IMG/VR virus record: IMGVR_UViG_3300045988_181613
DNA length: 64,000 nt
Strand: one strand, 5' to 3'
Source: a virus
Both the position numbers and the translations under genes were made by a program. Below the pieces are notes generated by a model that saw only the letters and a program-made list of their open reading frames with translations, was not told the DNA's origin and did not search any database. This document shows, one piece after another, positions 48,626 to 54,096 of the stretch (position 1 is its first letter; the number at the start of each line of letters is the position of its first letter).

Positions 48626-50633
48626 TTAAACAATACTCATCCCAATAAACTCAGTATAATTACTTGTCTGAAGCACATATTCATCATGGAATTTATTATA
48701 TAAAATAAAGCCATTTAACAATAAAAGATTTCCTTCACAACCTCTCAAAAATTCACCATAATCTTCGAAAAGTTCTGGATAAACAAGCACTTTTATAAAC
48801 TCATAATTACTTTCAAGAACTAAATTACAGAATGGTCCTTTTTTAGATTTTCTCTCTTGAATCTCTAAAACATAACCTCCCATTGCAACTTGATTGTCAG
48901 AAGTGGCTTTCCATTTCTTCAAATCTTCAGCACTTATAAAATTGACATCCTTTCCAATATTCGGAGAAAGATAAGTCTTTACAAGTGTTTTATAATCAAA
49001 GAAACCAAAACCTGATTTTTTCTTTTGTTGCAGTTGCCACCACCATTCTAAAGATGTTTTTCCTTTTTCATGCGCAATTGTATAGTCATCTTTAGTAGGA
49101 TCGATCTTAACCTTTTGATTTTTCCTATACTGTTGCAATAAGGTTTCTCTCTGTAAAAACGGTGAACCATCACTTTGATTTAATTTATCAAAAGCACCTG
49201 AATAAATTAAATTTTCTATGACAGATTTATTTACAGCCGATCCTTTAAAAAGATGCCTGTCAAGAAATTCTTCAAAAGAAAAATAAGGTCCATTTTCTTT
49301 CCTTTCTGAAATAAGTTGCGCCTGTGCTTTTTCTCCAACCTGATCGACTGAATTTAATGCCCAATACATACTATTGGTGGTAGGATCACTTATAATATTT
49401 ATCTCAGATTTGTTGATGTCAACTGGACGAATTTCTATATCACCAGAATTTCTAATCTCATTAATATAATAAGGGAAATCATCCATACTACCTCGACTAA
49501 ATGCTACTGACCAAAATTCAATAGGATAATGAACTTTCAGCCATTCACAATTATATCCATTTATTGAGTAAGCTACTGAATGCGACTTATTAAATAAATA
49601 AGAGGAAGCTTTTACAATTTCATCCCAAAAATCCTTTGCATATTCTGGTGTAACGCCATGACGAGAACAATATCCTTCAATAAACTTTGTTTCCAAAGAT
49701 TTAATTACATCGATCTTTTTCTTACCCATTGCCTTACGAGCAGTATCACAAGTAACAAGATCCATTCCAGCTAATTCATGCATCAAAGCCATTACCTGTT
49801 CTTGATATACAAATAAGCCGTAAGTCTGCCCTAATATTTCTTCTGTTCCTATATGATATTCTACTTCTCGTTCTCCAGATCTTCTAAGTAAGTACTCATT
49901 GTGGAAATTATTTTCTATTGTACCAGGACGATATAAAGCTGCGCAGTCGCTAAGTTCATCAATACTCGAAGGACCCATCTGAACACAATAAGAAGACAAA
50001 CCTTTTGCACCAAAGTGAAATACATCTCCTAAGAACCCTTTCTGGAAATAAGAAAAAACTTTTTTATCATCCAGAGGAATATCTTTGTAGAGATCGATTC
50101 TTTTTCCGTGATGTTCTTCAACAAGATTCAATATATCTGTAAATTTATCCAATTGCTCAATTCCAAGAACGTCTTCTTTTAAGAAACCAGCAGCATCTAA
50201 TTCCCCACCTTCCCATTCACTGACAATCATATCTTTTTGCTTTCGAACAGGCACCCACTCATACATTGTTTTATTATCAGGGAAAATCATCATAGCGCAT
50301 GCATGAATAGAAGCTGCTTTTGGTTGTCCGAGAATAAGTAACATGTCATTGAACATGTCCGAGTACTTCTTCACAAAGTTTCTCAATTCCTCACTGGCAC
50401 AAACTGTTTTCCAAAAGTCATCTGCTGTTTTTTCTTTTTCTAATCCTAATTTACTGGTAAATCGTCTAACCGTAGGAATATCAACTCCTTCTTGACGGCA
50501 AAGGTCTGTTATAGCTGCCTTTAATTGCAAAGTAGTATAGGTACCTACGGAACATACTTGTGATTGACCGAATCTTTGTTCCATATATTCTTTTACTAAA
50601 GGACGTTGTTCTCCACCGAAGTCAGTATCGACT
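48626..50633 (-). CDS. dnaE: DNA polymerase III alpha subunit, C-terminal coding segment (3' exon)
   Basis: The frame is open from just after a TGA (50636..50634): (V)[34 protein letters not shown]. It aligns residue-for-residue with the DnaE catalytic PDxDxDF...R..V..Y....YG...TFGT block. There is no start codon before Met 50584. Confidence 0.85.
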
Positions 50634-50701
50634 CACTCAAATATCCGGCAGCGACCCACCTTGAAGTCTTTGCCGGATATTCTTCTTTATAGTTTTAATT
50701 G

Positions 50702-51487
50702 TTAACATTTTATTTCTCCTCTCAAATTATTAATTAATTCTTCTACGTTTTCAGGAACTTTATTAGATTTAGACGGGTTGTCTTCAGCCCATAGAGGTTG
50801 TAAATTTCTGAAATTGAAACAAATCCTTTGTTGCTCTAAATCAGAAAGATCAAAGTAATCACAAGGAATAATATGATCAACATGCCATTCTCCCATATTT
50901 TTCCAGGTCATTCCTTCTTGGAACTGAGATTCAAGATACTGCTTTAACTTTAAAGGAGTACATCCTAACAGTTCAATCGTTTTTGCACATTTACATTCTC
51001 CGATTAAAGCACTATGAAGTCTATGTCTTAATCTTGAGATTAACCTTTTTAAGGGATCTCTTTCTCTAATACGAGACCATTCCTTTATCTTTTCGGGATT
51101 GTTAATTCTATAATCCTTTATCTTTTCAATAATAATATCCCTGTTTTTTTGATAATATAAAGGATTATATTCTTTCATGTACCCAGGATTTTCTGTTCTA
51201 AAAATTTGTAACATGTTCTTATTACATTCTTTACAAGAACAACTATACCCATCAATTCTACCAATATCTTTATTAAAAAAACTTATTGGTAAGATTCTTC
51301 CACAACGTTGGCATTTCTTTTCAAAAACTTCTTTTTTTTCTTTATTTCTATTATTTTTTCTATTTTTAGCAACCTCCTTTTTATTACATTCCTTGCAATA
51401 AGAATTATATCCATCCTTACTGGCAGAACATTTATAAAATTCTGAGAGCTCCTTATTTTCTTTACATTTTATACAATATTTCATCAT
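50702..51487 (-). mobile_element. Zn-ribbon + HNH homing-endonuclease-like gene (family member 2), inside the dnaE intron
   Basis: Two CxxC...C(K)xC modules (CIKCKEN...YCKECN; CQRCGRI...CSCKECN), then LLGC...QFQEGMTW...WHVDHIIPC...NLQPLWAEDN. Confidence 0.8.
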
Positions 51488-51509
51488 TTAAAATTTTATC
51501 GTTCTTCTG

Positions 51510-51615: not shown

Positions 51616-51728
51616 ACTTTCTTACCTAAACGGCCAGATGATAAAAATCTTTCAAAAAGAAGATTATATTTCAATGGATTTACATTAGTAATTCCAAGTA
51701 AATAGGAACATAGACATCCTGCTGCTGA
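51616..51728 (-). CDS. dnaE: DNA polymerase III alpha subunit, middle coding segment (between intein and intron)
   Basis: [38 protein letters not shown]: the DnaE GxGRGSAAGSLV..LGIT..P....LLFERFLN motif. The rest of track ORF 51462..51893 is intron read-through. Confidence 0.8.
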
Positions 51729-51836
51729 ATTATGAACAGTTATATTATTTACCGTATAAGAATGATGTCTATTATCAACCTGAAGATCATAAACCTTCCC
51801 TGAATAATTTATATATTTCTTCTTTTGTAATTTCAT
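51729..51836 (-). mobile_element. DnaE intein C-terminal splicing segment (36 aa)
   Basis: MKLQKKKYINYSGKVYDLQVDNRHHSYTVNNITVHN followed by Ser+1 (51728..51726). Same length and block F/G pattern as split-intein C-fragments. Different frame from the N-part, overlapping it by 50 nt. Confidence 0.75.
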
Positions 51837-52746
51837 TTTTCTTAAATTTTTGCCATCTAAACCCTTTATAACTCTTATTTGATTTCCCTGCAACAGTATT
51901 TATCGAATTTATGATAAAACCTGTTTTGTTTTTTAAATCTAAAGGAGAGTCATAGATATGAAGAATTTCCCCTTTTTTCGATAATTGCACAATATAAGAT
52001 AATGAATTCTTTTCAGAAAATCGTTTACATAATTCAGGTGTCATTAATTTATTATTCTTCATTCTTTCAGAATTAATTTTTCTTTTTTCTTCAGTCCACC
52101 TTTCACTTGTTTTTACACCTACAGAAATCTTTTCCTTAATAGAATTCATATATTCAGAACCTAAGACTCCATATATATTACCACCGTCACCTCCTGGTGC
52201 TATATTATAAACCAAATCACCAAATTTAGATCTATATTCTTCTATATAAAATTTTTCTCGATTGTTTAAATTAGAAGGATTTTCAACATATTCAATAATT
52301 TCCCATAAAAAAGATTCCCATCCATTTTTCTCTATTGATTCATAAAAAGGAGTTCTTATTTCTTTGTTCTGAAAATCCTTTTTATGAAAATTAATTCTTT
52401 TCTCCAGACCTTGAGTTGTTTTACCTATATAGATCTCCCCGGTTTTTAAATTCGTTGCTTTATAAATTAAAGGTCCTATATAAATAACATTGTCTTCTTC
52501 AGTTAATTTATCTGCTTCTACCCAACCACGATTCTTTGTGTAAAATTGATGATCTTTAGTACATTGAATTTTTATACCCGCCTCAAATTCTAATTCAACT
52601 ATCTCTTCATTACAATCATATTCAAATCGATTAATTACCTGATTCTTCTCATTCCAATAAGTAGAAAGATTATCTCCAATTTGAACGTCTTCAATGTTTT
52701 TTTTGGTTCCGTCTTTTAAAAGGACTTTTTGTCCTGGAAGAAAACA
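51787..52746 (-). mobile_element. DnaE intein N-terminal splicing domain fused in frame to a GIY-YIG homing endonuclease
   Basis: Cys1 at 52746..52744 after LLGAGRG. CFLPGQKVLLKDGTKKNIEDVQIG, block B CTKDHQF. Then IYKATNLKTGEIYIGKTT...R..H...E...N (GIY-YIG), NUMOD3-like repeats, tail YKGFRWQKF. Stop at 51787. Confidence 0.8.
52673..52710. repeat. 38-nt stretch identical to 31878..31915
   Basis: See partner copy. Confidence 0.9.
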
Positions 52747-54096
52747 ACCTCTACCCGCACCTAATAAAATATTGTTTTTCTTACACCAATTTACAATATC
52801 TCTTAGGATCAAGAAGTAATCAATAACATCCCCTTCTGTAATTACTTTGATTTCCCTATCAATTCTTTCTCCCACGACATCAATTCCATAATCTTCAATA
52901 AGATCAAGATGATCTTCCATTCCCTTAAAAACAAGTTCAGTGAACATAGTTTTATTATCAGGATAAAGTTTCGATTCCTCTTCTGTCATGTAATATTTAG
53001 GTAGATGTCTTTGGCCGGTTTCAATTGTATAATCACATTTTGAACATACATCTTTTAAATTATTCACAGCAGCTTCAAACACATCGAAAAACGAATCAAA
53101 ATCACCAAATAATTCACCTAATTCGAAATAATATTCTTGATTGTTTTTAAAATATTGGTTTTGGCTTTCATAACTCATAGTTCCAGCTATTTTATTTAGC
53201 CTAACTCGGTTATATGCATATTCTCTCTCCAAATAATATGCATCACACATAGCAATCGGAGAAAAATTAGAATCAAAAAACTTTTTTAAATTCTGTAAGT
53301 ACCATTTATCACGATCTTCCTTTTCATAGACAACCGTATCTAACTGGTAATAAAATTGTTGGCTAAACATTTTCCAAAGTTTGGAAACATCCTCAAATTC
53401 AATTGTTTTAGGATCTAAAATAATTATTAAACCCTCTCTTAATTGTTCGATTTCCTTTTCAGTAACATAGCCATTCTCGACATTAATTATGCGATTAATC
53501 TCTAAAATATTCAGCCAACCCTGTTCATTTTTAACAAAAGCTTTTACAGTATATTGCAAATCTTTCTCTTCAACCTTTATTGGAATTTCCATTCCAAAAA
53601 TAGGTCTGATATTTGCTTTTTTACAAGCTTCCTGAAATTTTAAAATTCCTGCAAGAGTTCCTTTTTCACATATACCAAGACTTTTGATGCCTAAAAAATT
53701 AGCTTTCTGGCACCATTCCTTATACAATCCACTTCCGTTTAAAAGTTCGAAAGGACCGTGGACTCCTAAGAAACAATCTACTTTTAAACATGGTTCTGAA
53801 AACTCAGCATTACCAAGCCAAAGTACTCTTTCTAATTTTACAGAACTTTCTTCTCCCGCTTTTAAGCGATACCAAATACCACCAAACCGGAAAATATAAT
53901 AATCATATTCCGTTCTATCACTATCCCAACAAAAACTTTCATCAAAAAACGAACCTTCATTATTAGGAAGTGACAATTGATGCTTCTCCCCATTGATAAT
54001 CACAACTGGACGTTCATCATTTAAAATTTGTAGAATGGAATATGAAATGAAATGTTCTTCTAAATATCTTTTTAAATCTTCAAACAGTTCTTCCAT
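52747..54096 (-). CDS. dnaE: DNA polymerase III alpha subunit, N-terminal coding segment (PHP domain to GAGRG)
   Basis: PHP-like FLGVHGPFELLNGSG...IRPIFGMEI; ends ...[10 protein letters not shown] immediately before intein Cys1. Confidence 0.85.

Follow-up and report, generated by a model that had tools for sequence, protein, structure and literature searches.

Group I introns with a nested HNH gene occur in the polymerase genes of SPO1 or Twort. In phage T4, the gene 39/mobA/gene 60 region combines an HNH cassette with a 50-nucleotide (nt) translational bypass (Manning & Atkins, bioRxiv 10.1101/2022.08.31.505936). The same study found MobA elements exclusively in Topo2L, stated that the bypass cassette "remains unique", showed that the gap blocks cleavage by the resident nuclease, and identified CC-UUCG-GG as the conserved tip of the T4-type take-off stem-loop. 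Refolding of a hairpin behind the ribosome is proposed as the driver of forward movement in gene 60 in a later preprint (bioRxiv 10.1101/2024.12.09.627546). The nrdA gene of Aeromonas phage Aeh1 is split by mobE, and the enzyme is active only with the tails that the insertion brought in (Crona et al. 2011, PMC3045599). Fractured genes, as described by Dassa et al. 2009 (PMC2677866), are split inteins with a homing endonuclease gene between the halves; they include three DnaE loci, and the 3' end of the nuclease gene overlaps the start of the C-terminal intein half (IntC) by 6-69 bp. Here we analyzed, by computational means only, the dnaE locus (48,626-54,096, minus strand) of the 64,000-nt IMG/VR virus record IMGVR_UViG_3300045988_181613, the whole of which is referred to as the window. 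The polymerase encoded by this dnaE is split, and its downstream half most likely depends on a ribosome hop from one catalytic aspartate (Asp) codon to the other; it belongs to a widespread family that we have not found described.

The minus strand carries every gene of the window. An initial annotation had placed the motifs of the Pol III alpha subunit, in order, on three minus-strand frames, and this was borne out: the three segments begin at 54096, 51728 and 50632, positions that differ modulo 3 and thus lie in three different frames. The Pfam profile DNA_pol3_alpha was covered in three parts, 8-65 in the open reading frame (ORF) 54096..51787 (769 amino acids, aa), 56-98 in ORF 51893..51462, and 104-260 from 50632 onward; the NCBIfam profile PRK05673 was likewise divided (9-365, 366-399 and 404-1041). 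Domain searches recovered the Hint/intein and GIY-YIG matches described between segments 1 and 2, and the HNH-type ORF (51487..50702; PHROG 1035, 1.8e-27) described between segments 2 and 3, where the strong hairpin was also found (50682..50639, z = -4.95). A "promoter box" claimed for that interval was at chance level, with 23 sigma-70-like sites compared to 17.9 +/- 4.8 in shuffles. Segment 3 begins directly after a TGA and has Met17 as its first start codon, in agreement with the initial annotation, which had rightly set it beyond ordinary initiation.

Relatives were surveyed as 192 fetched loci, cited here by their L numbers. The IMG/VR contig L004 has one continuous dnaE, with flanks 96-99% identical in nucleotides to those of the window. 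The N-terminal extein of the window (52747..54096, minus strand like all dnaE features below; 450 aa, with the PHP domain and the start of the Pol III alpha palm; Pfam PHP and DNA_pol3_alpha 8-65) was 98.7% aa-identical to that of L004. The interrupted stretch measured 2,123 nt in the window versus 129 nt in L004. Alignment with an uninterrupted dnaE had been put forward as the way to place the insertions, and L004 defines both sites. Site 1 is GRG/S (the slash marks the junction), equivalent to G363/S364 of E. coli, with the insertion site sequence GGAGCAGGTCGTGGA/TCAGCAGCA and a host motif, GRG/SAAG, that is unbroken in L004. Site 2 is the PD-ID-TDF motif, 37 codons downstream, where the L004-type uninterrupted sequence is CTTCCTGATATTGATACAGATTTC.

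Identity with L004 was 100% to within 13 nt of the site 1 insertion and was followed by five synonymous changes in the GAGRG codons. The 111-nt middle exon was full of changes, and identity returned right after GAT ACT GAC. Since the changes are clustered beside the insertion sites and the flanks are identical, they point to two homing events with co-conversion. The two elements also occur separately: L053 and L120 carry the intein only, L006, L176 and others the HNH cassette only, and L004 and L113 neither, so the intein and the cassette are independent of one another. The best explanation of the whole locus, held with somewhat better than even confidence, is that two independent homing-endonuclease elements, 37 codons apart, invaded an L004-like phage dnaE. 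The initial annotation had set two self-splicing elements with different endonucleases within 40 codons of the polymerase active site; the spacing and the different endonucleases stood, the HNH element lying at the catalytic Asp motif, and the second self-splicing did not.

The 982-nt interval between segments 2 and 3 is nearly all coding, and consists of a tail (51 codons), the HNH gene (261 codons) and a leader (23 codons), with 7-10 nt of non-coding sequence; the initial annotation had recognised neither the tail nor the leader. The tail is the C-terminal extension of the upstream polymerase half (51462..51617; 51 aa, VDVEMILINDEFEIEAEKILKISRNDQIIEIKALSLQKNDKILNDEILYKM, followed by a stop codon) and aligns with the C-terminal tails of 19 other distinct split dnaE genes in the pattern ..I.RN....I....L..GD.L. 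The free-standing HNH homing endonuclease gene (50702..51487; 261 aa, with N-terminal CxxC zinc fingers) overlaps the tail by 26 nt in a different frame, and its stop codon overlaps the ATG of the leader (ATGTTAA). The leader, an N-terminal extension of the downstream polymerase half (50640..50708), ends in ..GGSLPDI and includes the codon of the first catalytic Asp; its homologs are the N-terminal leaders of all split relatives, which are 21-22 aa long and end in [ST][LM]PD. The downstream half itself (48626..50632; 667 aa and a stop) starts with a putative landing codon, GTC, followed by DTDFGG.., and contains the second catalytic Asp, the rest of the palm, the fingers and HhH (DNA_pol3_alpha 104-260; DNA_pol3_finger, 5e-40; HHH_6). 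L004 reads SLPDIDTDF, so that the SLPDI of the leader equals the SLPDI of L004 (GGSLPDI in the leader, KVSLPDI in the host). This identity indicates that the leader, rather than segment 2 (which would be joined to VDTDF), is what truly continues into DTDF; a product of segments 2 and 3 alone would lack the first catalytic Asp.

The endonuclease at this position varied among relatives. HNH homologs, 36-41% identical, lie at the same position in L006, L007, L059, L069, L158, L165 and L176; elsewhere the nuclease is lost or exchanged, with none present, a GIY-YIG gene in L001, or two HNH ORFs and a methyltransferase-like ORF in L109. The tail and leader alone, with no endonuclease gene, are found in L010 (214 nt between the exons) and in many gut-phage relatives. 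In the cultured Cellulophaga phages phi13:1, phiST and phi19:2 and Tenacibaculum phage Larrie, dnaE is annotated in GenBank as two adjacent "DNA polymerase III alpha subunit" coding sequences (CDS) with the same tail and leader and no endonuclease, and in phi13:1 a single nucleotide separates the two CDS. Since cultured phages carry dnaE in two pieces, a split polymerase is viable, and spacings of 214 nt (L010) or 1 nt (phi13:1) leave no room for a ribozyme. These results suggest that site 2 holds a split-gene HNH cassette, in which the two polymerase halves would assemble non-covalently by way of the tail and leader. The tail and leader were also considered as a second, degenerate split intein; they amount to only ~70 aa together and lack the catalytic residues, and this candidate was rejected.

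Two further arrangements of the site were observed. In L109 (MT835494, ~2000-4200; a gut-phage contig of higher G+C), the split holds ~1.8 kb, comprising a methyltransferase-like ORF with a DPPY motif, two HNH_3-type ORFs and then the leader MKVTNVTIKKANEAFTVMD; its gap is 58 nt long, with the hairpin GGAGGGCGGA/CCGCCCTCC and the codon pair GAT..GAT. The cultured Bacteroides phage DAC23 (L108; MT074142, 1842-5675) and phages SJC03, DAC19 and DAC20 have an unsplit dnaE with an in-frame insertion of ~60 aa between ..FLNAGR and SLPDVDMD that matched the tail query. The DAC/SJC gene looks like a former split that has been re-fused, a case similar to the Topo2L clade termed "hit and run" in the MobA paper.

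Between the two catalytic Asp codons the window carries a 10-nt insert, TGAGTGAGTC, relative to L004: the window reads CCG GAT ATT TGAGTGAGTC GAT ACT GAC and L004 reads CCT GAT ATT GAT ACA GAT. The insert is made up of a 7-nt coding gap, TGAGTGA (50633..50639), and the proposed landing codon GTC (50632..50630). The first TGA of the gap stops the leader frame and directly follows the proposed take-off codon ATT (50642..50640), and the second TGA blocks the frame of segment 3, which has no in-frame start codon between that stop and the next Asp. Alignment with Taq Pol III alpha (2hpi) placed the aspartates of "PD" and "ID" on opposite sides of the insert, at D463 and D465; the same counting gives D401 and D403 in E. 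coli, and we take these numbers to be those of the catalytic residues. The insert thus separates the codons of the two catalytic carboxylates, and an active enzyme requires a precise join between the leader and the downstream frame. Three other ways of crossing the insert were rejected. A +1 or -2 frameshift at ATT-TGA enters a +1 frame that meets TGA four nt later; reassignment of TGA conflicts with the TGA that ends the nuclease ORF and with the TAA and TAG used at the same place in relatives; and a hop from Asp to Asp in the window (GAT..GAT) would leave the product two residues short between the catalytic aspartates and the Phe that comes after them.

Comparable gaps were found throughout the relatives. 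Of the distinct split junctions in the survey, 44 were gapless (85 loci) and 35 carried a gap (74 loci), the latter with inserts of 6, 7, 8, 10, 22, 23, 24, 39, 40, 41 or 58 nt that fall in all three phases. Phase differed even between close relatives (24 nt in L016 and 23 in L022; 8 in L008 and 6 in L009; 39 in L026 and 41 in L061). Stop codons block the leader frame in 35/35 gap variants, and TGA, TAA or TAG stands directly after the take-off codon in 32 of the 35. Matched codons flank most of the gaps, as in L171 (ATC TAA G ATC), L172 (ATC TAA G ATT), L164 (CTC TGA G CTC), L176, which retains the HNH gene (CTT TGA GG CTC), L173 (GAC TAA GG GAC), L116 (ATC TAG ..hairpin.. ATT) and L166 (ATT TAG ..hairpin.. 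ATC); GAT ..hairpin.. GAT occurs in L001 and L109 (58 nt), and L055 is also matched. The gapless L170, a sister of L164, reads PD-CTC-D, so the codon pair tracks the residue. GTY follows ATY, with a G.U pair at the first position, in the window and in the L005 and L016 types, and GAA follows GAY in L006, L008, L009 and L068. In all of these matched, GTY and GAA cases a hop would restore PD(I/L)D, and the PD aspartate is conserved in every leader. ATA is common at this position in gapless forms and never occurs at the landing position; ATA is read by another tRNA. The L005- and L016-type gaps carry CCCC-UUCG-GGGG directly after the stop. A search of IMG/VR with this UUCG gap cassette gave 23 matches, 21 of which were dnaE junctions and two of which look unrelated, and thus gave no evidence of spread to other genes. 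As a separate observation, the leaders of L016 and L055 differ at 2/66 nt at a dS (synonymous divergence) of ~0.5 in the downstream dnaE (L022 was also compared); the near-identical leader and gap suggest either recent spread of the cassette by homing or very strong constraint at the nucleotide level.

The stem-loop just upstream of the gap (50639..50682) has a 12-bp outer stem, GAAUAUCCGGCA / UGCCGGAUAUUU, and an inner 5-bp stem, and its 3' arm extends over the codons for Pro, Asp and Ile as far as the first base of the stop. An equivalent hairpin lies directly 5' of the take-off codon in 22/23 distinct gap-bearing leader segments. The stem sequence differs between families, the 3' arm lies over the Ser/Leu/Pro/Asp codons, and the structure has decayed in most gapless leaders. 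Between L006 and L008 the stem contains a compensatory pair, AGT/ACT versus AGC/GCT. Fold z-scores against shuffles ranged from -3.5 to -6.9 in the cassettes (-4.95 in the window), compared to +1.3 for the equivalent region of the unsplit L004, and hairpin stability exceeded that of all 1000 synonymous recodings of the same peptide in 8/8 cassettes tested, the window included. The mean free energy (dG) of the 48-mer was -21.6 kcal/mol with a gap and -10.8 without. The gapless L170 retains the same SLPD residues as its gapped sisters L164 and L169; synonymous substitutions at its Leu, Pro and Asp codons have abolished the stem.

The downstream half was under strong purifying selection in the gap-bearing lineages, between which the ratio of nonsynonymous to synonymous divergence (dN/dS) was 0.012-0.016 at dS 0.20-0.55; between the window and L004 it was 0.025-0.03. 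From these patterns, the best reading of site 2 is a cassette like that of T4 MobA/gene 60, with a programmed translational bypass. We consider it slightly more probable than its negation that the gaps form a second family of bypass elements, with no detectable similarity to the first, housed in an HNH cassette that splits phage dnaE between the catalytic Asp codons and is common in ~100-kb human-gut phages.

At site 1, the presence of an intein with a GIY-YIG homing endonuclease, interrupting dnaE at GRG/S, was confirmed by the Hint blocks, the GIY-YIG matches and the continuity of L004; the initial annotation was incomplete here, in that the intein is divided over two frames. All class 1 intein residues are present, namely C/FLPGQKV (block A, Cys1), CTKDH (block B, TxxH), VYDLQVDNRHH and VHN/S, and the C-terminal end reads ..VYDLQVDNRHHSYTVNNITVHN/S, with a terminal His-Asn and a Ser at +1. 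The closest solved intein was NrdJ-1 (E = 6e-12). The N-terminal half (IntN; 52477..52746) is in frame with the N-extein and gave Intein_splicing, Hint and intein_Nterm matches. Fused to it in frame is the GIY-YIG domain (51787..52476), which ends in ..YKGFRWQKF..REGL and the TGA at 51789..51787; the domain is I-TevI-like (Pfam GIY-YIG 1.5e-7; PHROG 314 at 5e-23) and scored 57.2 bits against TIGR01453, just above the cutoff of 56.05. IntC (51729..51836; 36 aa, MKLQKKKYINYSGKVYDLQVDNRHHSYTVNNITVHN) has its own ATG at 51836 in the +1 frame, 50 nt upstream of the nuclease stop, and the two ORFs thus overlap by 50 nt. The IntC of Npu DnaE is also 36 aa long. IntC is followed by the middle extein (51618..51728; 37 aa, DNA_pol3_alpha 56-98), which aligns to the L004 residues right after GRG. 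Gene callers in public assemblies annotate the IntC-containing ORF (124 aa).

In L053 and L120 the intein parts are 74-89% aa-identical to those of the window, and the layout is unchanged, with IntN and nuclease fused in one ORF, its stop, the IntC ATG and the shift in frame. Within the overlap, L053 has four substitutions, which are silent in the frame of IntC and change residues of the nuclease tail. Site 1 is thus a real class 1 intein, as judged from its sequence, and the two-frame layout with an IntC ATG, conserved in relatives, suggests a split intein of the fractured-gene type that would be active in trans-splicing. L008 has a contiguous mini-intein at the same GRG/S site. In L166, L119 and L148 (~150-1075), ~900 nt with no GIY-YIG match separate IntN and IntC at GRG/S, and because this stretch is unlike GIY-YIG the site hosts a different endonuclease or insert in these loci. 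More generally, dnaE is a hotspot in this phage group, with at least four insertion sites: a further intein lies in the downstream half at FNK/SHS in many relatives (L001 2100-2560, FNK/CVSF...VTCN/SHAAAY; L069-L083 ~7060-7880), and L053 and L120 have another near residue 278 of the downstream segment.

Taken together, these features suggest the following route to a working polymerase. The three dnaE pieces and the HNH gene would probably be co-transcribed. Precursor 1 would consist of the N-extein, IntN and GIY-YIG domain (769 aa) and precursor 2 of IntC, the 37-aa middle extein and the 51-aa tail, and protein trans-splicing of both would yield a DnaE-N subunit of ~538 aa. Translation of the leader would start at the ATG at 50708, coupled to the stop of the HNH gene. 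After 23 codons, peptidyl-tRNA-Ile would sit on AUU with UGA in the A site and would take off; the ribosome would slide 10 nt, aided by refolding of the 5' hairpin, and tRNA-Ile would re-pair on GUC through a first-position G.U pair. Decoding would resume at GAU and give a DnaE-C subunit of ~690 aa that begins with MLTIK.. and includes both catalytic aspartates. The tail and leader would then hold DnaE-N and DnaE-C together without a covalent bond. The gap lies in the most conserved stretch of the target and probably disrupts the HNH site, which would protect the carrier genome from its own nuclease.

Several observations weigh against this reading, and the take-off and landing codons in the window are its weakest part. 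The GTC of the window is not cognate to ATT and needs a G.U pair at codon position 1, and the 7-nt gap has only the 5' stem-loop and no internal take-off hairpin with a CC-UUCG-GG tip. Among the relatives, L169 has CCC at the landing position, and L026 and L061 have TAC before the resume codon together with a Shine-Dalgarno sequence (GGAGG) and an ATG/TTG just before YIDTDF. Duplication of the host motif would by itself account for part of the matching among Ile/Leu codons. No cultured gap-bearing phage was found, and viability rests on metagenome abundance and dN/dS. The HNH protein gave no BLASTP similarity to T4 mobA remnants; the tail profile scored 9.0 bits against T4 gp39, rank 8 among ~2000 shuffles, and the match of the leader profile to gp60 was not significant. 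At site 1, we know of no demonstrated precedent for trans-splicing by an IntN bearing a 229-aa C-terminal nuclease.

Other explanations were considered for both sites. The initial annotation had read the 982 nt as a group I intron with an HNH gene, in which RNA splicing joins ..GRLGKK(V) to VDTDF. An HNH gene between dnaE pieces in different frames and a segment 3 with no start codon would suit an intron, a possible intron preceded by U and ending in G can be picked out, and the GIY-YIG domain matches a family named "group I intron endonuclease", though that domain belongs to the site 1 element. However, an Rfam cmscan of 47000-56000 with permissive filters returned no family at E <= 1 and no group I catalytic core (P3-P9), only 7-10 nt of the interval are non-coding, and the flanks of the HNH gene are protein segments conserved in relatives that lack the endonuclease. 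The intron-less L004 also has SLPDI, which the leader encodes inside the supposed intron, so that the exon junction would lose SLPDI and the spliced product the first catalytic Asp. An intron can therefore be given almost no weight; of the earlier claim that a functional polymerase needs both RNA and protein splicing, the protein part stands, as predicted splicing in trans, and the RNA part does not. Hand-placed U/G splice sites (GKKV/VDTDF or GRF/DTDF) were dropped, since L004 and the leader ORF show the true continuity. For site 1, it is quite unlikely that the intein is contiguous and spliced in cis after a programmed +1 frameshift in the overlap (51893..51787) that joins GIY-YIG to block F. 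The overlap is A-rich and the nuclease of canonical inteins sits between blocks B and F, as this would require, yet the IntC ATG lies exactly where natural split inteins begin (36-aa IntC), and L053 and L120 retain this ATG as well as the nuclease stop and the shift in frame. Fractured genes, moreover, typically show an overlap of 6-69 bp where the nuclease gene ends and IntC starts (PMC2677866).

The remaining alternatives concern the gap. The gene could be split and not bypassed, with the leader a separate 23-aa peptide or a relic and the downstream half made by termination-reinitiation, by non-canonical initiation or from Met17. The GGAGG and ATG/TTG of L026 and L061 described above would serve this, gene callers annotate a 652-aa ORF from Met17, and sliding and reinitiation of 70S ribosomes after short ORFs are known (PMC11194080). 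We nevertheless regard it as unlikely: the window and most relatives have no in-frame ATG, GTG or TTG from the blocking stop up to the second catalytic Asp, the first one (PD), conserved in every leader, would be missing from the product, and matched take-off and landing codons, with a hairpin maintained only where there is a gap, would be left unexplained. The insert could also be an inactivating mutation in a dnaE pseudogene or defective genome that another polymerase replicates, and it does put stops in two frames between the catalytic codons. The same sequence in independent high-coverage assemblies, 35 distinct gap variants at 74 loci in many samples, dN/dS of ~0.015 among gap-bearing lineages (0.025-0.03 for the window and L004), and the intact ORF pieces, leader ATG, hairpin and intein catalytic residues make this very unlikely. 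Finally, conserved hairpins flank the gap, as would be expected if hairpin-guided cleavage and ligation of the mRNA removed it in place of the ribosome; we know of no such mRNA editing in bacteria or phages. Gaps as short as 3-7 nt exist without a second hairpin, and a stop after a codon that recurs at the resume point is a requirement of tRNA re-pairing, not of RNA ligation, so that mRNA ligation is highly improbable.

Two public contigs from separate assemblies (Logan ERR1620320 and ENA ERZ19617594, the latter at ~196x) matched the locus with 100% identity over 4.7-6.4 kb, every dnaE-locus junction included, and the sequence is therefore not an assembly error. The terminator scan found no minus-strand terminator within the locus, and the dnaE pieces and HNH gene are for this reason probably co-transcribed. 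A megablast search of 48000-55000 against GenBank phages gave no match and hence no annotated twin. Exact look-up of the 261-aa HNH product returned no record, and public gene callers begin the HNH gene at its second ATG; exact look-ups of the 652-aa (from Met17) and 124-aa products matched public assemblies.

The genome is heavily colonised by homing endonuclease genes. HNH paralogs of the cassette nuclease occur elsewhere in the window as four full copies (36-47% identity) and one partial copy, at 26246-27016, 54987-55661, 57818-58465, 63264-63983 and 59374-59499 (all on the minus strand), across the replication module, and a separate HNH_3 ORF lies at 36650-37960 (-). An ORF for a UvrD-like helicase (30293-32683, -; 796 aa) carries an intein at about residues 245-553, the first 30 residues of which are 60% identical to the dnaE IntN (tblastn 31951-31862). 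A SNF2-family helicase ORF (33433-36180, -; 915 aa) has a LAGLIDADG match at residues 347-402, inside the helicase region, which is probably another intein with a homing endonuclease. Directly upstream of dnaE lies an ORF (54196-54951, -) for a low-complexity protein rich in Lys, Ala and Glu (..KKAEAKAKKEAEKAEKKAAKAALKAAK..); the G+C content of this region is 45-47%, compared to ~30% around it. A QueC homolog (7-cyano-7-deazaguanine synthase; 55588-56412, -) lies near dnaE, and QueE and GTP cyclohydrolase I genes adjoin dnaE in a related Cellulophaga phage; these genes suggest deazaguanine DNA modification in this phage group.

To our knowledge, programmed bypass is represented by essentially one well-studied bacterial or phage example, T4 gene 60, and its homologs. 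A full-text literature search, which left most subscription papers outside its scope, found no report of bypass in dnaE. If the proposal is correct, one polymerase would need trans-splicing, subunit assembly and a ribosome hop, and the family would supply dozens of natural bypass variants, with inserts of 6-58 nt, with or without an internal hairpin, with cognate or wobble landing, and with hairpin decay upon loss of the gap. The cause of take-off, the drive for forward sliding and the choice of landing site would then become directly testable. Any enzyme with a conserved DxD motif could then be open to the same combination of splitting, tails and gap, as applied by homing endonucleases. In current annotation pipelines such polymerases appear as truncated ORFs, short of one catalytic aspartate. 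Protein engineering might make use of the split intein, whose extein neighbour is very short, and of the paired tail and leader.

Comparison with the known systems places the two elements as follows. The site 1 intein resembles the fractured genes in that separate ORFs of a phage-type replication gene encode IntN and IntC and a GIY-YIG nuclease lies between the two halves, in the overlap of the nuclease end with the start of IntC (50 nt here), and in that NrdJ-1, its best match in the PDB, is a member of the Dassa set. In contrast to them, the nuclease of the window is not free-standing, and is fused to IntN with no intervening stop, as it also is in L053 and L120. Site 2 is similar to an SPO1/Twort group I intron in that an HNH gene interrupts a phage polymerase gene near the active site, yet it has no detectable ribozyme core, its flanks are conserved coding sequence, and the junction would not restore the catalytic motif. 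The split of Aeh1 nrdA by mobE is likewise an HNH insertion in an essential enzyme, near the active site, with new C- and N-terminal tails; Aeh1 differs in having no coding gap and in the enzyme affected, and the role of the dnaE tails would be analogous by inference. The split dnaE of Cellulophaga phages phi13:1, phiST and phi19:2 and Tenacibaculum phage Larrie shares the split site, a homologous tail and a 21-aa leader, and lacks the endonuclease gene, the gap, the strong 5' hairpin and the intein.

The closest parallel is T4 MobA. In both, an HNH gene lies in an essential replication gene at a DxD metal-binding motif, and two ORFs result, whose conserved C-terminal tail and N-terminal extension are supplied by the cassette. 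The ORF of the tail overlaps that of the nuclease in another frame (by 26 nt here), and the extension ends in a copy of the displaced host codons; after it comes a short gap that contains stops, changes the frame, or both. The pairs of take-off and landing codons match in relatives (in the window, re-pairing of the ATT tRNA on GTC would take a G.U pair), and CC-UUCG-GG hairpins are present in the L005- and L016-type relatives, though not in the window. A decay series like that of MobA is also seen, in which the nuclease is lost or swapped (GIY-YIG in L001), the gap is lost, or the halves are re-fused (Bacteroides DAC/SJC phages). The dnaE element differs from MobA in its host gene, which is not Topo2L, in an HNH of a different subfamily, in a leader of 22-23 aa as opposed to 46 aa, and in a main hairpin that lies 5' of the take-off codon, with predicted take-off at Ile, Leu or Asp codons. 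Because the host gene and the HNH subfamily differ and the tail and leader have no significant similarity to their T4 counterparts, we do not place it in the MobA family; by analogy, it is best described as an element that would work like MobA and is not a member of that family.

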